From the UHGV virus genome UHGV-0121576: a DNA stretch of 41,663 nucleotides, one strand, 5' to 3'. Position numbers and translations under genes: made by a program. Source of the DNA: a virus. The notes beneath the pieces were generated by a model. That model saw only the letters and a list, made by a program, of their open reading frames with translations. It was not told the DNA's origin and ran no database searches. Positions 2,591-40,791 of this stretch are shown one piece after another. Position 1 is the stretch's first letter, and the number at the start of each line of letters is the position of its first letter.

Positions 2591-3295
2591 TTATCCGATA
2601 TCGCTTCGGGAAACGGATAACAACTTTAATTCTGACTCAAGTTCATCAACTCTTTCAGTCAGCTTCTGGATATGGTGAATCAGTGGAACAACCAGACGTT
2701 CGTACATTACACCTTCGGCAACAAGGCCATTGCTGGAAATAGCTTCCGGTGCATCATCTTCGTTAGCTGGTCGCCAGTGTACAAACTGAGGGGCAATTTC
2801 TCCTACTTCCTCGGCAATCAATCCGTAGAATCCCCAGTCACGCCTGTCATTTTCGCATTGCGACCTGTACCACACAGGGCGCATCTTGAAAATGAGATCG
2901 GCGTGCTCTGAATCTATTGTCTCTACTGAATGTTTATAGCGGATAGACGATGTTGACCGCAGAACAGACGAAATTGCGGGGTCAGGATTAAGATAAAGGT
3001 TTGCCGCCGCTGTAGTCGTGGCCAAATTCCATAAATAAAACGCTTCACGACCTGTCAGTGGATAAAAATCTCCGCCATAACGACCACTTTCCAGATCGTT
3101 CACTTCCACTTTGTTTTTCAGCTTATTATCAACTTCAGTTTTTGTGTATCTGGTGCTGATATCCTGCTTTGCACTGGTCATATCAGTCTGAAGCGTTGAT
3201 ACTTTTCCGTTAATTGAGGAAATATCTTCCTTAGTTTTACTGACATCTCCCTTTAGCGTTTTGATGTCATCAGGAATTACTGTCGATGTAGCCAT
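2591..3295 (-). CDS. Tail-fibre-associated protein with C-terminal intramolecular-chaperone-like (peptidase S74-like) motif
   Basis: C-terminus DWGFYGLIAEEVGEIAPQFVHW...GLVAEGVMYERLVVPLIHHIQKLTERVDELESELKLL resembles the autoproteolytic chaperone domain of phage fibres and spikes; N-terminal half is coiled-coil-like; motif recalled from memory. Confidence 0.45.
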   Translation of the reverse strand: MATSTVIPDDIKTLKGDVSKTKEDISSINGKVSTLQTDMTSAKQDISTRYTKTEVDNKLKNKVEVNDLESGRYGGDFYPLTGREAFYLWNLATTTAAANLYLNPDPAISSVLRSTSSIRYKHSVETIDSEHADLIFKMRPVWYRSQCENDRRDWGFYGLIAEEVGEIAPQFVHWRPANEDDAPEAISSNGLVAEGVMYERLVVPLIHHIQKLTERVDELESELKLLSVSRSDIG

Positions 3296-3304
3296 TTTTC
3301 TTCC

Positions 3305-3586
3305 TCACATCCAGCCACGAAGTTGATGCTCAACAGCAACCACGTATTCATCGAATATTGACGGTGTTTTCACATCATTAATGATGCGCACGTTTACAAA
3401 ATATCCGTCTTCCTTAACACATAGCGGCTCGCCATCTTCATTCAGTTCTCCGGTTTCTTTGTACACGTTACCTATCACATCAATGAGAACATTGTTCTGC
3501 ATTACCTCGTCATCTTCATAACCAATGCTATCCATAAAGGCCGAAAAGTCGGCCTTGTTTATGAATTTGAGGGTTAAGTCTCGCAT
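3305..3586 (-). CDS. Hypothetical protein downstream of stf (possible fibre assembly factor)
   Basis: 93-aa acidic ORF; start overlaps the stf stop; no recognisable motif. Confidence 0.4.
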   Translation of the reverse strand: MRDLTLKFINKADFSAFMDSIGYEDDEVMQNNVLIDVIGNVYKETGELNEDGEPLCVKEDGYFVNVRIINDVKTPSIFDEYVVAVEHQLRGWM

Positions 3587-5799
3587 TATATTCTTTCTCC
3601 CATTTGTGCATCTGTCAGTTCCTTATGCCAGATACGTAAATTGCGCACGTGTCCAAATAAATGCCTGTTACCTGATATTGATTGACCGCCTATATTTATT
3701 GGCCCTTCTGTATAACGTTGTCTTGTGTGTTGTGATACACCAACAGCGCCAAAGTTACCGTTTATAACAGCACGCAATTCTTTCTGCTCTGTAAACTTAA
3801 ACCCAGCAATAAACCTGCGGGTTGTCCTGTTACAGTAGGCTTTATACTCGGTCTTTGTTCCTTTTCCGTTAGTTATAATTGAGCGCGCGCCTCCAGAGGT
3901 AAAACCAAAATACATATAACTTTCATCAGCAACATCCGTTGTTGCGCCAGTTATTGACACGTTAAGAAGCCTTGCTGAACCTTCACTGTTTGGCATTTTG
4001 TCCCAGTTGATATTAACTTCCATAAGAACGCTTAACGGAGGTGTTGACCAGTTCAGTCTTATTGGCATTATTACCACGTCACTAGCCCGTGTAACTGCCA
4101 CATCTGATGTAACGATAAATGATGATGCACACGATCCTTTTTCAAATTGCGGCGTAGTAAACATTATCTGATCGCCTTTTTTGATCGCCCTTTTATCTGC
4201 TCCCATTTCAAAGCGCCCATACATGCTTTTTGCTTCTGGTGATTTATATGTAAATTCGACGCGTAACCATCCGTTAGCTTCTCTGTATATGACATGATTT
4301 ACAGCATCCCCACCAGAAAAACCTAAAACATCACCAGTTTCGCAATCTATGTAGGAACCAGCTACCAGCGTGTTGCTTGTGCCGTCATCGTTAACGAAAG
4401 ATATTCTGGGTCTTAACGTTATAATACCTTCTCCATTTATCTTCTTAACCCTACAGGACAAAGTAACAGATTCATTTGCAGCAACATCAATAACCCTACT
4501 GTATCCAGTAGATATTATCGTCGCCCTTTCAGTGGTTGATGTTTCCTTTACATCGAACAAACCATATTTAAAACCATATTCATCAACCGATGTGGTTATT
4601 TCTATATTCTTGTCGTCATAATTCCATAATGAAGGATTGTTACTATTAGTAAATGTATTTGTCCTCTGACCTTCAATTAATAAACCTTCCTTTTCAAAGC
4701 GCGGCTCGTTAATTTCTGCAAAAGCAAATGAACCTGATTTGTTTATATACGTTGCAGAAGTGGAGCGAGTGAAAGATACAACCTTCTCTGATGGAAAAGT
4801 AATAACATCATCACCGATAGTGACTTTTTTATAACCTGGGGCGAAACCAGTAATCATTTCCAGTGAATCGTTAAACGGTATCCACACATCAGGCAACGGC
4901 TGCAAAACTTGTTTATACGGCTCCGCTGCCTGGCTTGCATACTCTCTGGCTGCGTCTTCACTTGCTTTAGCTGCTGTCTGGCTTGCCGCCGATGCTTGCG
5001 CCGAGTTAGCCGCCGCAGTCTCGCTCGCCTTTGCGTTGGTTTCACTGGTTTTTGCAGCTTTTTGACTGTTTGCTGATGCAGTGGCAGAAGCAGCCGCCGC
5101 ACTTGCAGAACCAGCTGCGGCACTCTCGCTTTCAGCTGCTGCATCCTGACTGCTTTTCGCCGCAGTTTCGCTGGCTTTGGCATTCGTTTCGCTGGTCTTC
5201 GCTGCCGTCTGGCTGGACTTTGCGTTGGTTTCGCTCGTCTTTGCGGCTGTCTCGCTGTTTTTCGCGTTGGTTTCTGATTTTTTGGCTGCTGTCGCGGAGT
5301 TTGCCGATGCAGTCTGCGAGGTCGCTGCCGCCTGTGCGCTGTTAGCTGCATTCGTTTCTGAGGTTTTCGCCGCGTTCTTCGATGAAGCCGCTGCAGTTTC
5401 GGATTTCTTTGCCGCCGCTGCGCTCTGAGAGGCGGCTTCGGCGTTGCGTGCCGCTTCTTCCACCATTGCCTCAAAACGGCGCAATGCCTCCGGCATGACA
5501 TCATCTTCCGTCATGGCACCGAGAAAATCATTCAGCGTACCTGGTCTGGAACCTTCATAGACGGTAATGGTCCCGGCATGTGAAGGCGGAAAACCTTCAA
5601 CCAGCAGGGTGACGCTGTACTGGCCATACTCAACATCCATGCTGTAACGTCCGGCTTCATCCGGATTTTCAGAAGCCACCGTGTTCACCAGTACCGTGGT
5701 GCTGTTACGCTTTGCCTTCAGTTGAATAGTGCAGTTCTGTATTGGTTTTCCCGCACCATCTTTCAGCACACCTGAGATTTTTACTGCTGCCATATCCAC
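3586..5799 (-). CDS. stf: Side tail fibre protein
   Basis: N-terminus VKISGVLKDGAGKPIQNCTIQLKAKRNSTT...GRYSMDVEYGQYSV matches lambda Stf; long Ala/Ser/Thr collagen-like repeat region; C-terminal 400 aa unlike lambda. Confidence 0.85.
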   Translation of the reverse strand: MDMAAVKISGVLKDGAGKPIQNCTIQLKAKRNSTTVLVNTVASENPDEAGRYSMDVEYGQYSVTLLVEGFPPSHAGTITVYEGSRPGTLNDFLGAMTEDDVMPEALRRFEAMVEEAARNAEAASQSAAAAKKSETAAASSKNAAKTSETNAANSAQAAATSQTASANSATAAKKSETNAKNSETAAKTSETNAKSSQTAAKTSETNAKASETAAKSSQDAAAESESAAAGSASAAAASATASANSQKAAKTSETNAKASETAAANSAQASAASQTAAKASEDAAREYASQAAEPYKQVLQPLPDVWIPFNDSLEMITGFAPGYKKVTIGDDVITFPSEKVVSFTRSTSATYINKSGSFAFAEINEPRFEKEGLLIEGQRTNTFTNSNNPSLWNYDDKNIEITTSVDEYGFKYGLFDVKETSTTERATIISTGYSRVIDVAANESVTLSCRVKKINGEGIITLRPRISFVNDDGTSNTLVAGSYIDCETGDVLGFSGGDAVNHVIYREANGWLRVEFTYKSPEAKSMYGRFEMGADKRAIKKGDQIMFTTPQFEKGSCASSFIVTSDVAVTRASDVVIMPIRLNWSTPPLSVLMEVNINWDKMPNSEGSARLLNVSITGATTDVADESYMYFGFTSGGARSIITNGKGTKTEYKAYCNRTTRRFIAGFKFTEQKELRAVINGNFGAVGVSQHTRQRYTEGPINIGGQSISGNRHLFGHVRNLRIWHKELTDAQMGERI
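4930..5470 (-). repeat. Intragenic tandem repeats in stf encoding a collagen-like AAKTSETNAK-type motif
   Basis: Visibly periodic DNA (gcggtctcgctggctttggcattcgtttcgctggtcttcgc...) and repeated peptide units; produces long spurious ORFs in other frames. Confidence 0.6.
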
Positions 5800-28419: not shown

Positions 28420-29541
28420 TTACTCAAATAACTTTTTCACTTCATCAACTGTCTGAAGATAACGTTCACCCTCAATCTCAATACCGATTGCCTGACGACC
28501 TAACTTCAGCGCGGCTTTAATAGTAGAGCCTGATCCCATAAAGAAATCGGCAACGATATCTCCGGGGCGGGAACTACTTTTTATAATATGTTCCATCATC
28601 GCTGCAGGTTTTTCACATGGGTGCTTGCCAGGATAATATTGCACAGGAGGAAACTCCCATACATCGGTATAAGGTACATCAGCAGTAACATGAAATGGGC
28701 GGCGCAAATTTTCATACTGAGCCTTCAAATCATCATACTGCTTCTTTACTTCCTCATAACGCAATTTCAGATCGCTATAACGCTTTTCATGTTCTGAATA
28801 ATCAACATTAAAAGGATATGGACACGGGACACCGAGTGAATCTGCCTTCCTGCGAAATAATTCGCATAGTTTATTAAAATCACTTAATGATGGAAGCCGC
28901 CACTGCGAATAAGAAAACCAGTGCGAACACATCTGCTTTCCTGTTGCTGAATTAATGTCTGCGGCTGATATATCTAACTGACGGCGAGCCAGCGAAAAAG
29001 CATCAATTAGTGGAGAAAAAATATTTTTTCTTAAATCTGCACATTTTGAAGCATAACCTGACTGACCTTTAGCATAACCTGACGCGCCGTAATGCTCTGC
29101 AAATAATATTCTTTCAGTGGCAGGAAAATAAGCCCTTAAACTTTCTTTATGACAACCGCGCCACATACCACTGGGTTTAGCCCAAATGATAAGGTTCAGA
29201 ACATTGAAACGGTCGCGAGTTAATAATTCAATTTTTGACGCAAGGCGAGAGCCGGTAAACATATACAGGCTGCCATTAGGGGCCAATATCCGCCAAAATT
29301 CTGCCAAAAATTCATCAATCCACCCCAAAAAGTCAGCATCGCTATCCCACTGGTTATCCCATGCGTTAGCCTTTACGCCGAAGTATGGTGGGTCTGTTGC
29401 AATCAAATTGACCGAGTTATCAGGGATGGTTTTGATAAATTGCAGAGAATCTGCGCAAACGAGTTGCGCGCCATGAATATTAGTGGTTTTGAACATAGCT
29501 ATTATTTTTTTGCCTGGGTAAGCTAACCCGGCGATGCGCAT
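28420..29541 (-). CDS. Orphan DNA methyltransferase (N6-adenine or N4-cytosine, beta class)
   Basis: Motif IV DPPYF near the N-terminus and motif I FFMGSGST near the C-terminus; no adjacent restriction endonuclease; true start may be the internal Met at about 29496. Confidence 0.8.
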   Translation of the reverse strand: MRIAGLAYPGKKIIAMFKTTNIHGAQLVCADSLQFIKTIPDNSVNLIATDPPYFGVKANAWDNQWDSDADFLGWIDEFLAEFWRILAPNGSLYMFTGSRLASKIELLTRDRFNVLNLIIWAKPSGMWRGCHKESLRAYFPATERILFAEHYGASGYAKGQSGYASKCADLRKNIFSPLIDAFSLARRQLDISAADINSATGKQMCSHWFSYSQWRLPSLSDFNKLCELFRRKADSLGVPCPYPFNVDYSEHEKRYSDLKLRYEEVKKQYDDLKAQYENLRRPFHVTADVPYTDVWEFPPVQYYPGKHPCEKPAAMMEHIIKSSSRPGDIVADFFMGSGSTIKAALKLGRQAIGIEIEGERYLQTVDEVKKLFE

Positions 29542-30390: not shown

Positions 30391-30702
30391 ATGTTTAACG
30401 TGATAACCCACCCTGCAGCACTGGATGAACTGCTTGAACTACCAGATGATTTGCGAGGTCGCATGACCAGATTAATTGAGCGACTGGAGAAGGAAGGCAA
30501 CAAACTGAAGATGCCCCATAGCCGTGTAATAGGTGGAGGGCTTTTTGAACTACGAGTAGGGGATAAAAACATCGCAAGAACGCTGTACGCCTACGCGACT
30601 GGTAACGAAATTTATCTATTGCATGCATTTGTAAAAAAGACACAGAAAACACCGGTGAAGGCTATCGAAATCGCCAGAACTCGCCTGAAGGAGATGAACT
30701 GA
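30391..30702 (+). CDS. Type II toxin, RelE/ParE superfamily, Gp49-like (HigB-like)
   Basis: LFELRV...ARTLYAYATGNEIYLLHAFVKKTQKTP motif typical of the phage Gp49-like toxin family (named after N15 gp49) as recalled; followed by an overlapping HTH gene. Confidence 0.7.
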   Translation: MFNVITHPAALDELLELPDDLRGRMTRLIERLEKEGNKLKMPHSRVIGGGLFELRVGDKNIARTLYAYATGNEIYLLHAFVKKTQKTPVKAIEIARTRLKEMN

Positions 30703-30989
30703 TGAAAGCGAAAGGCATCCCGTTTAACGAAGTAAAAGAAAAACTTCTCAACACTCCAGAAGCCATCAAAGGATATGAAGAGGCCGATAAAGAGCTGGAG
30801 ATGGTCGAAATGTTATACGAAATGAGGGAAAGAGCAGGTTTAACGAAGTCAGCTCTGGCTGAACGAATGGGATTGCGCCCGTCAGCTATCAGCCGCCTGG
30901 AAAGCAATCCTTTAGGGGCAAGCATGAAAACTTTATCAAAATATGCCCAAGCATGCGGTGCAACGATTAATATTAATGCCGTCTATTGA
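30702..30989 (+). CDS. HTH XRE-family antitoxin (HigA-like)
   Basis: HTH LTKSALAERMGLRPSAISRLE; start overlaps the toxin stop (ATGA). Confidence 0.7.
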   Translation: MKAKGIPFNEVKEKLLNTPEAIKGYEEADKELEMVEMLYEMRERAGLTKSALAERMGLRPSAISRLESNPLGASMKTLSKYAQACGATININAVY

Positions 30990-31006
30990 TTAGACCCTTT
31001 TCGCTA

Positions 31007-31026
31007 CCCCGTCCAGAAGGGCGGGG
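31007..31026 (+). terminator. Hairpin after the toxin-antitoxin pair (weak T-tract)
   Basis: CCCCGTCC-AGAA-GGGCGGGG stem-loop between convergent genes. Confidence 0.3.
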
Positions 31027-31032
31027 TGTGTA

Positions 31033-31251
31033 TCAATGATGCAAACACTCAACAGCAATAACTTGTTGGCAATTCTGAGCAATCTCCCGCGACATACTAA
31101 CAAGTCGTGAAATCTCGCCAAGATGCAAGCTGGCTTCTGGAGAAGCCAGAGCAACGCTAACCAGATCTAAAACGGCGTCGATGTCTTTTAGGTTTGATCC
31201 GAGTTCTTCAAGAGTTGATACAGGTGCTTCAGTCATTGAATCTAATACCAT
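31033..31251 (-). CDS. Hypothetical 72-aa acidic protein
   Basis: ORF only; preceded by a 240-bp non-coding region. Confidence 0.35.
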   Translation of the reverse strand: MVLDSMTEAPVSTLEELGSNLKDIDAVLDLVSVALASPEASLHLGEISRLVSMSREIAQNCQQVIAVECLHH

Positions 31252-31493
31252 TTAATTAAAAAAGGTTATTTGATACTGTATAAAATTACAGGGTAAAACT
31301 CAAATTTTATAGCCAACTTTCAATGGATTAACTGGTTAAATATCTTTGTAGTCCGATACTTATGTTCCCTTCCTACGCCTCGCCCAACCACTTTCAAAAG
31401 CCCATCACCACCATCAGAAAAGCTCTTTTCGCTCCGTTTTCGTATCATTTCAAAAAGCAATGCCTTTTTGTCCATTTATCCCTCCGTGACCAG

Positions 31494-31820
31494 TCACACT
31501 TTGAGCGCAAGTTTCAGCCTCGTGGTTGTAAGGTGGCATGAGCCTTCACCATCAAAAATGCATTCTGAAACAGGCATTTTTTGACCACATCGCGGACAAG
31601 TAGTAGATAGCTGTTTCTGCAACTCCTTATAGTTTTTCCTGATCAGCAGTCCGATGACTTCGTTCTCTGAATATGGAACTCGCCCTGGTCTACGCAATAC
31701 ACAAATTTCCCCCAACATACGTAACTCGTCAGGTTCCAGAATCCAGTCACGTCTTGATGTTCCTTCCTTCTTCAACCGTTCCCTGCGTCTTCTTTGCCGT
31801 TCTGCCGGTGTCAGCGCCAT
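31494..31820 (-). CDS. Hypothetical protein with N-terminal arginine-rich motif and C-terminal CxxC...CxxxxC cluster
   Basis: MALTPAERQRRRRERLKKEG then CPRCGQKMPVSECIFDGEGSCH; last gene of a five-gene overlapping cluster. Confidence 0.45.
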   Translation of the reverse strand: MALTPAERQRRRRERLKKEGTSRRDWILEPDELRMLGEICVLRRPGRVPYSENEVIGLLIRKNYKELQKQLSTTCPRCGQKMPVSECIFDGEGSCHLTTTRLKLALKV

Positions 31821-34707: not shown

Positions 34708-35008
34708 TTTCTTGTGCGACCACGGTCGCACCCTCTCTGATTTCCAAGTAACGCTTAATCCAAAGATTTTCTATATGCTTATTACCTGGCTGATTTGATA
34801 AATACCAATCGGCAATTACAGACTGCTTATTACTATCTGGTCGTGTCCTGTAACCACAAGTTGGACACCAGATAACATATTCATTTCTTACCCCCGAATA
34901 CCTTAATTCTGGCTTCGACGGTTTCCTGAACATAACTTGTTTACAAAGGCAGAATGGCACTTCCTGCCCGATGGCGTTTGATGATTTCACTGCGCTTCTC
35001 CGCCGCAT
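34688..35008 (-). CDS. Small Cys-rich zinc-ribbon protein (possibly Lar-like)
   Basis: CLC and WCPTCG pairs; overlaps the end of the upstream ORF, so the start is uncertain. Confidence 0.35.
   Translation of the reverse strand: MRRRSAVKSSNAIGQEVPFCLCKQVMFRKPSKPELRYSGVRNEYVIWCPTCGYRTRPDSNKQSVIADWYLSNQPGNKHIENLWIKRYLEIREGATVVAQENENNAI
34714..34731. promoter_or_regulatory. sopC-like centromere palindrome GTGCGACCACGGTCGCAC (site 4)
   Basis: Identical to sites 1 and 2; lies between the Q-like/zinc-ribbon genes and the downstream operon. Confidence 0.6.
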
Positions 35009-35651
35009 TTAATAATGCAGTTCGATTTAAGCTCAGACATCGCGACTTAATTAAAAGCCAGCGTTCTTTATAATCTTGTCTCCAGCTATCAATAGATATA
35101 TTCAGTAGAAAACTCAGATGCCTGTCCTGTTCTCTCTCATCAACTGCCTCAGCACACGTAAGTTCTGACTTAACCTGCTGTGCCGCGTAATAAATCAATT
35201 TTCTCATGGCTTTTTTCGTGGAGGCCTTCATTTTTTTAAACCCGCCACCCGAATGCGCAACCAGAAAATCAAGCCATAACCACTGACAAACAATCACATC
35301 ATTGTTGTAGTCAGGCTTGCATCCGTAGCAATAATAAAGCCAGGCTGATTCCTCGTTATTCAACTGACCAATAGCCCTGCGCCAGCTGGCGCTCTGAAAA
35401 TCAATATCAGTGAGCAACATTGATGATTGTTTAAATGTTTTGCCCTGGTGGAATCTAACCGGCTCAGCAGGAACAGACACTTCGTATGAGTTATCATCAC
35501 CTACACTGATTGACCGGACTGGTTTATTGTTAAAGCGTCCTGATCTGCCTAGACGCATCTGCTCAAGCTGGACCTCTAGGATGCCACGCTGGCGATAATG
35601 AATATCAGCCAATGCCGTGGAGACGCAGCTGCGTATATACTCAAGCTCCAC
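34941..35651 (-). CDS. Putative late regulator (antiterminator Q-like by position only)
   Basis: 236-aa ORF immediately downstream of the Cro-like gene, as in the N15 cro-Q arrangement; no sequence motif confirmed. Confidence 0.3.
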   Translation of the reverse strand: MELEYIRSCVSTALADIHYRQRGILEVQLEQMRLGRSGRFNNKPVRSISVGDDNSYEVSVPAEPVRFHQGKTFKQSSMLLTDIDFQSASWRRAIGQLNNEESAWLYYCYGCKPDYNNDVIVCQWLWLDFLVAHSGGGFKKMKASTKKAMRKLIYYAAQQVKSELTCAEAVDEREQDRHLSFLLNISIDSWRQDYKERWLLIKSRCLSLNRTALLNAAEKRSEIIKRHRAGSAILPL

Positions 35652-35889
35652 GCTTACGGCTCTCCTTAATCGACTGCTTTACCCGCCGAGTTGTAAAGTC
35701 ACTCTTCAGCTTGTAAGCAGTACGAACTTCAATATCACTTTGCCGCAATGAAGGAATCTCTCCAGCGGTTAACCATTGGTAAACAGCACCGGGTGTTACA
35801 CCTACCCCAGCCGCTGCTTTTTCTACACTGCCAAAGTGGCGAATAAGTTCTTCTGGTTTCATGCGGTTATTATAAGCAATAAATCGCAT
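35641..35889 (-). CDS. Cro-like HTH regulator
   Basis: HTH AAGVGVTPGAVYQWLTAG; divergent from the CI-like repressor gene. Confidence 0.6.
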   Translation of the reverse strand: MRFIAYNNRMKPEELIRHFGSVEKAAAGVGVTPGAVYQWLTAGEIPSLRQSDIEVRTAYKLKSDFTTRRVKQSIKESRKRGA

Positions 35890-35931
35890 TTAAAGCCAGC
35901 TATAATAAATAAATTTTATAGCCAGCTATAA
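35890..35931. promoter_or_regulatory. Candidate operator pair in the cro / repressor divergent region
   Basis: Two 16-bp near-palindromes TTAAAGCCAGCTATAA (35890-35905) and TTATAGCCAGCTATAA (35916-35931), 26 bp centre to centre. Confidence 0.45.
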
Positions 35932-35953
35932 GAAGATCATTTATGATTAAGCT

Positions 35954-36550
35954 ATGAAAACACGAGGCGAACGACTGAAAGCACGCCGTTTAGAGATGAA
36001 GCTGACGTTGCGAGAAGTTGCTGAGGCTGTCGATATCTCTATTGCAGGCGTCCAAAACTTAGAACGTGGCGACGTAATGCCGTCACTGGAGATAGGTATT
36101 GCCCTGGCTAAATGCTTACGCAAGCCAGTGCATTGGGTGCTGTATGGGACAGAATATGACCCTGATCGCATTCCTGTTATTGGCACAACTGAAAGTGGAC
36201 CTGATGAAGAGTGGAAGCCAGGACAGGTTCCAAATACTGAGCGATTCCTGCCATTCATCAGCCAGCGCAATACTGTTTATGCGTTAACTATCAGCAATCT
36301 GGCGCAGGGAAACTATCAGCCTGGCGATTTTCTCCTGGTCGATTCTGCGCTGGAACTGGTCCCCGGAGAGGATGTTCTGGTTCGTGATACTGCAGGAAAT
36401 ATCACCATCCAGCGCCTGGCCCGTTTTGATGATGAAAATTACTATCTGGACGGAACAAATTCACAACGCGCTATCTTCAGGAAAAGCGATCTTGAATTTG
36501 TTCACCAAATAGTCGGAACGATCAAATCATTCATGGTTGAGGGTAGATGA
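35954..36550 (+). CDS. CI-like prophage repressor (HTH XRE plus LexA/S24-like C-terminal domain)
   Basis: N-terminal HTH LTLREVAEAVDISIAGVQNLERG; C-terminal PGDFLLVD...VEPGEDVLVRD aligns with the lambda CI C-terminal domain; located upstream of repA. Confidence 0.75.
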   Translation: MKTRGERLKARRLEMKLTLREVAEAVDISIAGVQNLERGDVMPSLEIGIALAKCLRKPVHWVLYGTEYDPDRIPVIGTTESGPDEEWKPGQVPNTERFLPFISQRNTVYALTISNLAQGNYQPGDFLLVDSALELVPGEDVLVRDTAGNITIQRLARFDDENYYLDGTNSQRAIFRKSDLEFVHQIVGTIKSFMVEGR

Positions 36551-36651
36551 CTTAATACGGGGTTTATTGTTTGCTGTAAATCTGGTTTAATGCAGAGCAT
36601 ATGTTCTGTGGGTTGACTCAGGTTACAGCAGCAGAAAAAAGACGAAAAAAA

Positions 36652-36680
36652 ACCCGAGTCGGCAAACTCGGGTCCTTTTC
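36652..36680. terminator. Hairpin between the repressor gene and repA, with T-tracts on both strands
   Basis: CCCGAG-loop-CTCGGG preceded by AAAAAAAA and followed by TCCTTTTC. Confidence 0.35.
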
Positions 36681-36795
36681 AGGAAGCAGCCACAGTAACG
36701 CGACGGATTCCGTCAATTCAAGATGCGTTTATTGTGGCTGCTCCTGCGGATTTTTTCAACCCGAAAAAACATAATTCGCATGGAATGGCTAAAAA

Positions 36796-39700
36796 ATGAC
36801 ATTAAACGATTTCTATGCGGATCGCTTTGGCAGCGATCCGTTCTCGCTAATTGAAGCAGCACGGGATGAACTAACCGAGCTGGCACAGATGGCTGGTATC
36901 AACTGGTCTGCCTGTTCCGACAACATCCAACTCAACCCTCGCGGGGGTGTTGAGCGTTACTCTTCATACAATAAAACATCCCCAGAAGCTCTCGAAAAGA
37001 GCCTCAAAGGACGCGTAGAAATTTACTCCCGGCTGGAACACAGCAAAGGGATTGATTACCCGTTCATTAACTTCGTCCATAAAGGCAGCGATGCTGGCTC
37101 ATGGAGCGGTTTCTCCTTCCTGTTTTCTGAATATCGCCGTGAGCAACAACGGAATAATGCGACCGTGGTCGCACAACCGGAAGAAGAACGGGCAAGAATA
37201 GAACGTCAGGCCGAAGCACGTCGTCGCCGTGAAGAACAAAAACGAATTAATGACCTGAAAAACAACCAAATGGACCATGAACGTTTGCTGGGATGGCTGG
37301 CATTCCACAGTGCTTGGGAACATGCTCCTGCAGAAGACGGCTCATGGCCATATGCGATTAAAAAAGGTATTCGTGACGTTTTTAATTCGTGTGATGTGCG
37401 TCGCGTGACCAGTCACGACAGCGCAAAATGGAGCAGGGGGCCAACCACGTATATGGCTATCCCTCTGGCTCACCTGGACGGTCGTTACGATGGTCGTATT
37501 GTTGGTTGGCAGCGAATCGACAAACAAGGTGGAAAATACCAGACCAGCGCCGTAACCAGCGGCGATTTCGTCGGTGCCTGCTTTGTTATCGGTGAGCTGA
37601 AAGGGGCGCAAAACATCGCTGTTACAGAAGGTTTTGCTACTGGTGCATCCATCTGGCTTGCCACGAAAAAAGATAAACGCTTTGACGCTGTGGTTGTCGC
37701 TGTATCCGCTAACAACATGGTTCATGTTGTGGAACAACTGGTAAACATGTACCCGGCGGCAAAAATCACCTGCGCACTGGATAATGACCGGAAATCAGCT
37801 ACAGAAGGAAAAGGGAATACCGGCCTGCGGACTGGCTATGAAATCTTATCGAAATTCAACGATGTCCGCTGCGTCTATCCAACTTTTGAAGACGATCCGC
37901 AAATGGAGTGCAGTGACTTCAACGACCTGCACAAACTACGTGGACTTCGTGAAACAGCACGTCAACTGTTTGCAACTGCAAACCGCCTGAAAACTGGCAC
38001 TGATTTGCTATCTCTGACGCTCAACCGCCTGAAGACAATTAAGCGGGATAACCGTCGTACTTTTGCCAAAGAGCTGCTGAGAGCAGTGGATATTGGCATG
38101 CTAACCTGTCCGGTTCCTAACAGTCCGTCAGACTTATTTAACATGTTCTGCATCGTCCTGCGTGAAATTGGGCTGGAAAATATCTATCGCGCTACGGTAA
38201 AAGACCACATTGCCCGTCGCCTGAATAAAAAGTGCCGTATTGCCCAGGCTCCGCGCTCATTCAGCGAACGAATAACTGATCCCAATAAACGTCCTCAACA
38301 TATCACCTATAAGCGTTTTGAAACTTCGGTAATGACCGATGACGTCCTGAAGTATGTGCAATCACTACAGGGGATAGTCATCGTTCGTGCTGGTATGGGT
38401 TCCGGCAAATCTACTGGATTGTTACGACCTTTAATGCATAGCTCAGAACGTGGTATCTCTGTTGCTCACCGTGTTTCCCTTATTGGTGGCCTGTGGGAAA
38501 TGATGACAGAAGGAAAAGGTGTAAAAGCCGATATCCTGCACTATCAGGACCCTGGCTATCAGGAAATGGCTCCATACGCCAGTAAACTGACCATCTGCAT
38601 AAACTCGATTGTTAAAAACTGCTGGCAACCATTGATGCGCCAGCACGACTATTTTGGCTTTGACGAGGCCACGCAAGGGCTACGTGCCGTTCTTTCCGGT
38701 CGGGCTATGGAAAACCCGGTGGCTGTATTCAATACGTTAATTGACGCGCTGGCCAGAACGGAACAACACCCAATAATGGTGGATGCTGATGCGAACGATC
38801 TGCTGGTTGACCTGGCTGAACTGGCTATGAAACGCCGTGAAGAACTAGGTTTACCGGCATGGCTGCAGATCCACGTAATTGAATTACCTGTTGATGTTCG
38901 CAACCGCGAAACAGGTGAGCCAATCCGGGTTTTTTATACAGAAAAAGATCGCATTATGACCGAGGTGGTGAAAGCTGTATCGAATGGCGAAAAAATCATG
39001 TTGGCCACCGACAGCTCCACCTTTGCAGAAGATGTGACCGCCACCCTGAGAATGCATTTTCCTGGTAAGAAATTTCTGTGTGTAAACCAGAAAAACAAAC
39101 CAGAGCCAGAAGTTGAAGCATTTACCAATCAACCGAAAAAGATGGTCAAAAAATACGACGGCCTGATTTATAGCCCGTCTATTTCATCCGGTGTGTCGAT
39201 TGAGCAAAAACATTTTGACCGTCATTTCGGCATGTTCTGTGGTGAAGTTGTACCCAGCGACGCAGTGCAAATGCTACGCCGCGACCGTACAGCAAAAGAA
39301 TTTATTATCGGCTTTGATAAAGCTCGCGCAAAACGTGAAACTGACCCGCAAAAAATAGAACGAGCATTCGCCCAGGCATTGCTTGCTACCGCAGGCATGA
39401 ACGGTGAACTGACGGATGTCGTTTTCGATGGCGACCGTATATCAATGGGGGTGGCCAATACCGACTTTACCAGGATGAAAATTAAAGCAGCCGCAATTGA
39501 AGCGTCTGCGCGTAACGACTACGCCAGCAACATGATCTGCATCATGCACAGCGACGGTTATAAGGTATCGCCGCTGGCCACCGATTATGCTGCGAATGAT
39601 ATCGGTAAAGATCTGCGTAAAGAAGCGCGGGATATTGTGTGGGAACAGACACTGGATCTGCATCTCAATACAGAAACTCCACAAGAATCAGAGCGTGAAG

Positions 39701-40791
39701 AACTGCTAAAAAAACGCGCGCTGACGCTTGAAGAACAAGCAAAACTTGTCCGCTGGGATATTGAGAACGAACTGAAACTACCGGTTGAAGAAGGCACGCT
39801 GAAATTCTATTTCGATGGTGCTCGAGACAAAGTTCGCCGCTATGAAACAATGCTTTTAGATGAGGTAACAGCTCGTCGTTACGACCGGGAAGAAGCAGCC
39901 ATCAATTTTACCTACGCATACCGTCAGGCGGGACAGTGGCAATATTTTGTAGTGACCGCGATGACTCGCGAGCAGGCTGATGATGTCTTTAAAACTAAAT
40001 TCCCTGGAATAATCGACTACAAGGTAAAAGCTACTCCTACTGTTGAAGTCGGGGCGCGCGGTTTCTATGCGCTTAAATCAGCAACTCTCCGGCAGTACTT
40101 TATCGACTGCGGTATCAACCCTGAGACTATGACCGGCGAGGCGACTCAGGAGCGTCTCAAATTCGCTCGAGATAACCTCATGACAGCCGAACGCCGTGAC
40201 CTGTTGAATAACGTTCTGCACATTGGTGGTTTTATGACGCCAAAAGGGAAGCCTAAAGTGCCGGAAGCGTTGTTTAAAAACATTTGCGACTCTCTTGGCC
40301 TTAAAACAGGTAAACGTCGCGGCAGAGACGGCGATAAGCGTCCAACCTTGCGTTTTGTTGAGCCTGAATCAGCGGCATTTATGCTGGATATTCTTGTTCA
40401 GCGTCAGAAAGATGGCCTAACCCTAAAAACGCGTAAAGCCGAGAAGACAGCCATCGAAATGGATCGCGATTTGGATCTCAATATATATATGGATGATAAA
40501 ACGCGATCCACAAACGAGCAGGTTCAAAACGCCCCTCATTCAGTAATTTCTGAGGCTTTGGCCGTATTGCCGGTGGCTGTTCCTGAGTCCTGGGCGATGA
40601 GTGCGCTTTCCGGTGAGGAGCTGGCCACTATGTCATCATGGTCATCAGCCAGCATAGCTATGACGTTTGCATCTCTGTATCTCACAGAGTTCATGGATCA
40701 CTTGTCCAGCAATGAATTGCGGCGGTTACGAGAATACATTACCGGGAATAGCTCATGCAGCTACGAAGAGCAGGGAGCTTTCTATGGGTAA
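36796..40791 (+). CDS. repA: RepA replication initiator, multidomain primase-helicase
   Basis: 1331 aa (N15 RepA is about 1324 aa as recalled); P-loop GMGSGKST; position downstream of the CI-like repressor. Confidence 0.85.
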   Translation: MTLNDFYADRFGSDPFSLIEAARDELTELAQMAGINWSACSDNIQLNPRGGVERYSSYNKTSPEALEKSLKGRVEIYSRLEHSKGIDYPFINFVHKGSDAGSWSGFSFLFSEYRREQQRNNATVVAQPEEERARIERQAEARRRREEQKRINDLKNNQMDHERLLGWLAFHSAWEHAPAEDGSWPYAIKKGIRDVFNSCDVRRVTSHDSAKWSRGPTTYMAIPLAHLDGRYDGRIVGWQRIDKQGGKYQTSAVTSGDFVGACFVIGELKGAQNIAVTEGFATGASIWLATKKDKRFDAVVVAVSANNMVHVVEQLVNMYPAAKITCALDNDRKSATEGKGNTGLRTGYEILSKFNDVRCVYPTFEDDPQMECSDFNDLHKLRGLRETARQLFATANRLKTGTDLLSLTLNRLKTIKRDNRRTFAKELLRAVDIGMLTCPVPNSPSDLFNMFCIVLREIGLENIYRATVKDHIARRLNKKCRIAQAPRSFSERITDPNKRPQHITYKRFETSVMTDDVLKYVQSLQGIVIVRAGMGSGKSTGLLRPLMHSSERGISVAHRVSLIGGLWEMMTEGKGVKADILHYQDPGYQEMAPYASKLTICINSIVKNCWQPLMRQHDYFGFDEATQGLRAVLSGRAMENPVAVFNTLIDALARTEQHPIMVDADANDLLVDLAELAMKRREELGLPAWLQIHVIELPVDVRNRETGEPIRVFYTEKDRIMTEVVKAVSNGEKIMLATDSSTFAEDVTATLRMHFPGKKFLCVNQKNKPEPEVEAFTNQPKKMVKKYDGLIYSPSISSGVSIEQKHFDRHFGMFCGEVVPSDAVQMLRRDRTAKEFIIGFDKARAKRETDPQKIERAFAQALLATAGMNGELTDVVFDGDRISMGVANTDFTRMKIKAAAIEASARNDYASNMICIMHSDGYKVSPLATDYAANDIGKDLRKEARDIVWEQTLDLHLNTETPQESEREELLKKRALTLEEQAKLVRWDIENELKLPVEEGTLKFYFDGARDKVRRYETMLLDEVTARRYDREEAAINFTYAYRQAGQWQYFVVTAMTREQADDVFKTKFPGIIDYKVKATPTVEVGARGFYALKSATLRQYFIDCGINPETMTGEATQERLKFARDNLMTAERRDLLNNVLHIGGFMTPKGKPKVPEALFKNICDSLGLKTGKRRGRDGDKRPTLRFVEPESAAFMLDILVQRQKDGLTLKTRKAEKTAIEMDRDLDLNIYMDDKTRSTNEQVQNAPHSVISEALAVLPVAVPESWAMSALSGEELATMSSWSSASIAMTFASLYLTEFMDHLSSNELRRLREYITGNSSCSYEEQGAFYG
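37157..37174. promoter_or_regulatory. sopC-like centromere palindrome ATGCGACCGTGGTCGCAC (site 5, inside repA)
   Basis: 17 of 18 match to site 3; 7-bp perfect arms; lies within the repA coding sequence. Confidence 0.55.

Follow-up and report, generated by a model that had tools for sequence, protein, structure and literature searches.

Near-palindromic 16-mers between cro and cB of an N15-like phage-plasmid as probable members of a five-operator immB set

Gene setting of the immB region

The DNA analyzed here, referred to throughout as the window, is the whole 41,663-nucleotide stretch of virus genome UHGV-0121576. Judged by its sequence, it is a linear, N15-like telomere phage-plasmid. The whole window is colinear with Escherichia phage PhiR46_1 read from 45897 down to 3442, in the order of the linear plasmid-prophage, and on this colinearity it is without both telomere-end regions, telN, and immA. 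Its immB region carries the following genes.

34941..35651, minus strand: Q-like antiterminator gene (Pfam Phage_antiter_Q, E = 2e-84)
35641..35862, minus strand: cro, lytic repressor of 73 aa (Pfam P22_Cro, E = 1.7e-22; 87% identity to N15 Cro)
35954..36550, plus strand: cB, prophage repressor of 198 aa (78% identity to N15 CB; Pfam HTH_3, E = 3.4e-11)
36796..40791, plus strand: repA, open reading frame for a replication protein of 1331 aa (annotated in relatives as primase or CyRepA1 replication protein)

The Q-like gene sits downstream of cro in the same leftward operon, in the order found in N15 immB, and this gene of the cro operon would be controlled from OR. Over the immB stretch (35400-36800), the window is 99.7% identical to PhiR46_1 and 96.6% identical to YDC107_1, and its immB shares about 75% DNA identity with phages N15 and phiKO2. 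The immB region is present in 214 PLSDB plasmids, 29 of them at 95% identity or more (Escherichia and Shigella) and 185 at 60 to 80% identity (mainly Klebsiella). The relatives used for comparison were taken from plasmid and phage BLAST searches; a CB protein scan of genome contigs returned only two unrelated Firmicutes HTH proteins. At the start of the window, sopA/parA is broken into open reading frames of 92 and 300 aa (76-354 and 356-1258, both on the plus strand) by a 13-nt insertion (GCCAGCTTCTCCA, approximately 334-346) relative to the intact 390-aa ParA gene of PhiR46_1, suggesting either a frameshifted partition gene or an assembly error.

The extent of the cro-cB intergenic region depends on the start codons assigned to the two genes. 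The cro ATG at 35862 is conserved in all relatives, and it yields the 73-aa Cro that PGAP annotates in RefSeq plasmids. The mechanical list of open reading frames extends cro to an ATG at 35889, and the deposited PhiR46_1 and YDC107_1 annotations likewise give an 82-aa Cro from the equivalent of 35889 (342-590 of the compared segments). The overextended part (35863-35889) swallows both the OR1 site described below and the cro -10 element. With the conserved start at 35862, the intergenic region is 35863-35953 and holds OR1 as a third site. On the other side, the start ATG annotated for N15 cB (ATGATTAAGGGTATG) is out of frame in the window (35943-35956), where a 1-nt deletion (ATGATTAAGCTATGA) closes that frame after 4 codons, so that translation of CB has to begin at MKTRG (35954), 6 nt past the hexamer TATGAT. 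This start, as read from the sequence, points to a leaderless cB mRNA across the whole family.

The two regulators resemble their N15 counterparts to different degrees in their DNA-contacting segments. A comparison of the window Cro with N15 Cro in the PDB (2HIN/6ON0) gave E = 2e-32, and the recognition segment TPGAVYQW is identical in the two proteins, so that the specificity of Cro for OR3 should be unchanged. The predicted helix 3 of CB reads ISIAGVQNLERG in the window and ISLPGVQNLERG in N15, phiKO2, and KpLi5, and the first two residues of the predicted recognition helix are I-A in the window versus L-P in N15 and phiKO2; CB affinities could therefore differ. The match of CB to Peptidase_S24 lies below the Pfam threshold (21.3 versus 23.3 bits). 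For the N15 and phiKO2 CB proteins, no cleavage site and no catalytic Ser/Lys have been reported (PMC4997575), and the window CB, too, is probably not self-cleaving.

The operator set and its overlapping promoters

The initial annotation drew attention to paired near-palindromes in the intergenic region and proposed them as candidate repressor operators. Both are present, TTAAAGCCAGCTATAA at 35890-35905 and TTATAGCCAGCTATAA at 35916-35931, with 6 of 8 and 7 of 8 symmetric pairs, respectively, and both are flanked by a P22_Cro-family gene on the minus strand and an HTH_3 repressor gene on the plus strand. They lie 10 bp apart and form an inverted pair that is 81% complementary. Allowing at most 3 mismatches, the 16-mer has 6 matches in the window versus 0.20 expected, a number reached by none of 100 dinucleotide-preserving shuffles. 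The two 16-mers are real and are not chance occurrences. The same stretch also contains a 26-nt direct tandem repeat (35878-35903 and 35904-35929, 81% identical) that includes both sites.

GenBank entry U45242 (N15 immB) annotates five CB-binding operators, three in OR and two in OL. The N15 sites OR1 to OR3 occupy the interval from cro to cB, and the repA promoter PL, between cB and repA, is covered by OL2 and OL1. The 35890 and 35916 sites are the orthologues of OR2 and OR3 and thus of annotated CB-binding sites. A motif scan of the whole replicon had been suggested as a check in the initial annotation. We carried it out with a weight matrix built from only the ten N15 and phiKO2 operators reported to be bound in vitro, and hence independent of the window. 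The OR3 and OR2 sites took first and second place among approximately 41,600 window positions, OR1 and OL2 ranked fourth and fifth, and the score of OR1 is expected only 0.03 times per shuffle. The probable operator set is given below, with the N15 sequences from U45242.

35867..35882: TTATTATAAGCAATAA, OR1 orthologue; at the position of N15 OR1 (TTATTATAATCAATAA), 23 bp from OR2; matrix rank 4
35890..35905: TTAAAGCCAGCTATAA, OR2 orthologue; aligned with N15 OR2 (TTAAAGCTAGGTATAA) and phiKO2 OR2 (TTAAAGCCAGGTATAA); matrix rank 2
35916..35931: TTATAGCCAGCTATAA, OR3 orthologue; base for base the OR3 of N15 and phiKO2; matrix rank 1
36564..36579: TTATTGTTTGCTGTAA, OL2 orthologue; at the position of N15 OL2 (TTATTGCTGACTATAA, an annotated CB operator); matrix rank 5
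36587..36602: TTAATGCAGAGCATAT, OL1 orthologue; at the position of N15 OL1 (TTAATCCGATCTATAC), 23 bp from OL2; T-A-N10-T-A kept

OR1 (35867-35882), OL2, and OL1 are further members of the family that the initial annotation did not include; OR1 was probably overlooked because the mechanical open reading frame, running to the ATG at 35889, hides it. The start-to-start spacings of 23 and 26 bp (OR1-OR2-OR3) and 23 bp (OL2-OL1) are identical in the window and in N15, and T2-A3 together with T14-A15 is found in all five window sites. Across 14 relatives drawn from Escherichia, Shigella, Klebsiella, and Enterobacter, OR3 shows no change, in contrast to the spacers; the alignments also show no variation in the outer arms of OR1 or OR2, whereas the spacers and the segment beside the cro ATG are variable. 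The window thus has what defines the N15/phiKO2 operator family: the T-A-N10-T-A frame, three OR sites with their spacing, an OL pair, orthologous flanking genes, and conservation. OL1 is the weakest member of the set in the window (5.5 bits, rank 45), with an assignment that follows from its position. The low score of OL1 and the divergence of OL2 suggest that control of repA may be weaker or may depend on OL2 alone. Overall, the sequence comparison makes it very probable that the two 16-mers are the positional orthologues of the N15 immB operators OR2 and OR3 within a five-operator set. Iterons, partition sites, and telomere repeats were set aside as other identities, since the position and symmetry of the sites and their orthology to the annotated CB operators leave no ambiguity. 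The observation that singled them out was correct; as operators of the N15/phiKO2 type they are already known, and in that respect the finding is an ordinary one.

Promoter elements overlap these sites. On the minus strand, the cro-proximal promoter has a perfect -10 element, TATAAT (35874-35869), inside OR1 and 6 nt from the cro ATG, with its -35 element (35898-35893) inside OR2. A promoter-like scan match marks the cB-proximal promoter:

35919-35924 and 35942-35947, plus strand: cB-proximal promoter, -35 TAGCCA, 17-nt spacer, -10 TATGAT

OR3 overlaps its -35 element, N15 annotates a -10 element at the same place, and the -10 hexamer ends 6 nt ahead of the cB ATG. The geometry of the cro and cB promoters predicts leaderless mRNAs, and that of cB is probably leaderless; in PY54, leaderless cI and cro mRNAs have been shown by RACE (PMC4488713). 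At the repA promoter PL, the -35 element TTTATT (36563-36568) is overlapped by OL2 and the -10 element TTTAAT (36586-36591) by OL1. The promoter scanner recognized only one of the promoters annotated in N15, and use of these promoters by the window phage is presumed by analogy. The leader between cB and repA also keeps N15 features, namely, a bidirectional terminator hairpin (36645-36680), a 14-nt inverted repeat (36685-36698 and 36729-36742), and a minus-strand promoter-like sequence, TTGAAA-17-CACAAT (36731-36759), at the position of N15 Pinc, which gives an antisense RNA to the repA leader. This stretch (36645-36759) is almost invariant across relatives.

The corresponding proteins have been studied in N15 and phiKO2. 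N15 CB binds all five operators, with repression of repA and a reduced copy number as the result of its binding to OL; phiKO2 CB recognizes OR1 to OR3, OL1, and OL2, as well as the N15 operators, with a minimal target of 18 bp, and phiKO2 Cro binds only OR3 (PMC4997575). Neither phiKO2 protein bound OR3 half-sites or a site changed only in the outermost bases, and in reporter assays CB blocked cro transcription and Cro blocked cB transcription (PMC4997575). The same work characterizes CB as a protein of rather low binding specificity that forms tetramers or octamers (PMC4997575). N15 Cro binds OR3 with a KD of 90 nM, leaving OR1 and OR2 unbound up to approximately 1 uM, and has been cocrystallized with a symmetric site one central base off OR3 (PMC6649833). 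As cited in two reports (PMC4488713, PMC3121763), induction of N15 is known to depend on AntC, an antirepressor under LexA control whose gene lies outside both immA and immB.

We infer that the CB and Cro proteins of the window phage itself bind these sites. The sequence, position, spacing, conservation, and orthology of the sites were observed directly, and the steps of a mechanism can be drawn by homology with N15 and phiKO2. CB dimers on OR1 to OR3 would mask both hexamers (-10 and -35) of the leftward cro-Q promoters and so keep lytic transcription off in the lysogen, and CB on OL2 and OL1 would reduce repA transcription and lower plasmid copy number. Cro, binding with strong preference to OR3, which overlaps the cB-proximal -35 element, would shut off cB. 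Induction would be expected to proceed through the LexA-controlled antirepressor, the AntC homologue at 31033-31251.

Two other readings of OR2 and OR3 bear on this picture. The 16-mers might be a by-product of overlapping divergent A+T-rich promoters and of the local 26-bp tandem duplication, and not protein-binding sites at all. They do contain or abut TATAAT-like hexamers on both strands, and OR2 and OR3 both fall within the 26-nt direct repeat, but promoters need no dyad symmetry, and 6 to 7 of 8 pairs are symmetric here. Moreover, OR3 is invariant across genera although the adjacent spacers change, and the identical sequence is a proven binding site of orthologous proteins (PMC4997575, PMC6649833), leaving this reading extremely improbable. 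The other reading accepts the sites as operators and concerns which of them Cro binds. In the E. coli/Shigella clade, OR2 is a near-copy of OR3, differing from it at one position (position 4), compared with three in N15, and Cro would then bind both and repress its own promoter, a more lambda-like arrangement than that of N15, phiKO2, or PY54. In its right half-site (AGCTATAA), the window OR2 is the same as OR3. Position 11 is one of the base pairs that Cro contacts (PMC6649833); OR2 has G there in N15 and phiKO2 and C in all examined members of the E. coli/Shigella clade. The left half-site, however, keeps a T-to-A change at base pair 4, described by Hall et al. as disruptive for Gln H6 contacts (PMC6649833), and the change at position 11 is a single evolutionary event, so that covariation gives no test. 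On balance, we regard autorepression by Cro through OR2 as possible but doubtful; that Cro may also bind OR2 would, in any case, be only mildly novel. The preferred reading remains that of N15-type OR2 and OR3, with Cro directed mainly to OR3.

Operator-like sequences elsewhere

According to the initial annotation, a weaker relative of the 16-mers lies at about 31307 in a 240-bp noncoding region, as a third copy through which the repressor might also control the accessory region. A sequence of this kind, TTATAGCCAACTTTCA, is indeed present at 31307-31322, but the region is mostly taken up by a gp47 homologue and an antC-like promoter, as listed below.

31033-31251, minus strand: antC-like open reading frame of 72 aa, 57% identical to an unannotated N15 open reading frame that is found at the corresponding place and likewise follows a LexA box
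31274-31291: LexA box TACTGTATAAAATTACAG, in the spacer and -10 element of the putative antC promoter
31303-31298 and 31280-31275, minus strand: putative antC promoter, -35 TTGAGT, 17-nt spacer, -10 TACAGT (assigned by eye and from N15 geometry)
31320-31475, minus strand: gp47 homologue, 51 aa long; compared with PhiR46_1, YDC107_1, and N15, an in-frame deletion of 87 nt has shortened it from 80 aa

From its position and the LexA box, the open reading frame at 31033-31251 is probably the SOS-controlled antirepressor gene antC. A sigma-70 scanner found no promoter in 31000-31600. The short gp47 allele is also present in approximately 12 PLSDB plasmids at 93.5 to 100% identity and is hence not a sequencing artifact. 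Directly downstream of antC, on the opposite strand, two overlapping small open reading frames of 103 and 95 aa, the second HTH-like (30391-30989, plus strand), are colinear with N15 genes 49 and 48 and look like a toxin-antitoxin pair.

Could the 31307 sequence nevertheless be a genuine low-affinity site for CB (or Cro) that modulates the LexA-controlled antC promoter and so couples the switch to the antirepressor? Its left half-site (TTATAGCC) is that of OR3, and the match continues into the flank, giving an exact repeat of 14 nt (AAATTTTATAGCCA; 31302 and 35911). It lies 3 bp upstream of the putative antC -35 element, and five plasmids with the short gp47 have retained it; in E. coli plasmid LR883007, a member of this short-gp47 clade, it reads TTATAGCCAGCTTTCA and matches OR3 at 14 of 16 positions. 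The low specificity and the tetramers or octamers ascribed to CB (PMC4997575) would also favor such a site. Its right half (reverse complement TGAAAGTT), however, violates T-A-N10-T-A at position 15, reading T14-C15 instead of T-A, and matches OR3 at only 5 of 8 positions, and half-sites and outermost-base variants are not bound by phiKO2 CB or Cro (PMC4997575). PhiR46_1, YDC107_1, and an E. albertii plasmid have the same OR sites but carry TTACGGTCAATTTTCA in place of the 31307 sequence, even though the repressor is the same (YDC107_1 CB is 99% identical to the window CB, and PhiR46_1 immB DNA is 99.7% identical); N15 reads GATACAACCATTTTTT there, and an Enterobacter phage and an Enterobacter plasmid differ again. 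Approximately 0.29 hits with the matrix score of this site are expected in a shuffled window, the complete genomes of N15, PhiR46_1, and phiKO2 gave nothing near antC when scanned with the matrix, and the site overlaps the gp47 stop codon. The site occurs only in the short-gp47 clade, and its conservation there says little, the entire region being 93.5 to 100% identical. A third operator at this place, tested by the mismatch scan, by the matrix and shuffles, by an alignment of 11 relatives, and by the whole-genome scans, was rejected as unsupported. The sequence most likely represents a chance partial match and is probably not an operator. It is because of the LR883007 sequence that we keep a small residual probability, and we consider a functional site here very unlikely. 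The proposed control of the accessory region is not supported, given one half-site only, a broken frame, and absence from the closest relatives with the same repressor. A combined scenario, suggested by sequence features, would have OR2 homogenized towards OR3 together with the I-A change in the CB helix, such that Cro may occupy both sites and autoregulate, and would add a half-operator beside antC in the short-gp47 clade that feeds immunity status back onto the antirepressor; this, too, we think unlikely.

Two further operator-like 16-mers emerged from the scans. The matrix ranks TTAAACCCAGCAATAA at 3797-3812 third in the window, with 18.4 bits, T-A-N10-T-A kept, and 0.01 occurrences expected per shuffled window. 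It was rejected as an operator: it lies within the side tail fiber gene (3586-5799, minus strand), and the PhiR46_1 homologue (CTGAATCCAGCAATAA) is without the left arm. The match is probably a coincidence, though CB could bind it in vitro. Another 16-mer is kept in three relatives, as TTATAGTTTGCTTTAC in N15 (28576-28591) and phiKO2 (31208-31223) and as TTATAGTTTGCTTGAA in PhiR46_1 (3035-3050), the last approximately 400 bp beyond the end of the window. Its location in N15 and phiKO2 is immediately upstream of the terminator preceding the icd-antA-antB (immA) genes, and it may represent either a true additional CB site or part of a promoter. A literature search for a CB site in immA yielded nothing usable and no statement on this 16-mer.

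Significance and relation to known switches

Because the sites are orthologous to those of one of the better-characterized non-lambda genetic switches, their import lies chiefly in annotation. OR1 to OR3 and OL1 and OL2 can be annotated in the window phage-plasmid and in at least 29 close E. coli and Shigella plasmids, the cro start can be corrected in the deposited relatives, and the cB start can be fixed at MKTRG. The identity of OR3 and of the Cro recognition segment with those of N15 predicts a shared Cro specificity and makes cross-immunity probable, a point of interest for clinical Enterobacteriaceae in which several N15-like plasmids come together.

In N15 immB, the gene order Q-cro/cB-repA, the number of 16-bp sites, their spacing, the T-A-N10-T-A frame, and OR3 are all as in the window. 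Relative to N15, the window has C for T at position 8 and C for G at position 11 of OR2 and G for T at position 10 of OR1, and OL2 and OL1 are clearly more diverged. These differences are small and trace to one lineage split, which makes an argument from covariation impossible. The immB region of phiKO2, the experimental model (Hammerl et al. 2016, PMC4997575), likewise has five operators with an OR3 identical to that of the window and strong cro promoters that overlap OR (PMC4997575). Position 8 of OR2 is C in phiKO2 as in the window, whereas the central bases are different in OR1 and in the OL sites.

The arrangement also recalls lambda OR and OL in its divergent repressor and cro genes with three operators between them, its overlapping divergent promoters, its further operators at a second promoter, and the preference of Cro for OR3. 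A strict lambda-type switch can nevertheless be rejected. The operators are 16 bp rather than the 17 bp of lambda, the S24 match is below threshold, and no self-cleaving CI domain is recognized. The window Cro has the all-alpha P22_Cro fold, and N15 and phiKO2 Cro bind essentially one site; the OL sites control a plasmid replication gene; and the N15-type repressor, which has no recognizable RecA-cleavage apparatus, is inactivated by a LexA-controlled antirepressor (PMC4488713, PMC3121763). PY54 immB resembles the window in that Cro binds a 16-bp palindrome similar to OR3 and located upstream of its repressor gene (PMC4488713). In PY54, however, this is a single operator, with different outermost base pairs that set specificity, whereas the window has the full N15-type set.
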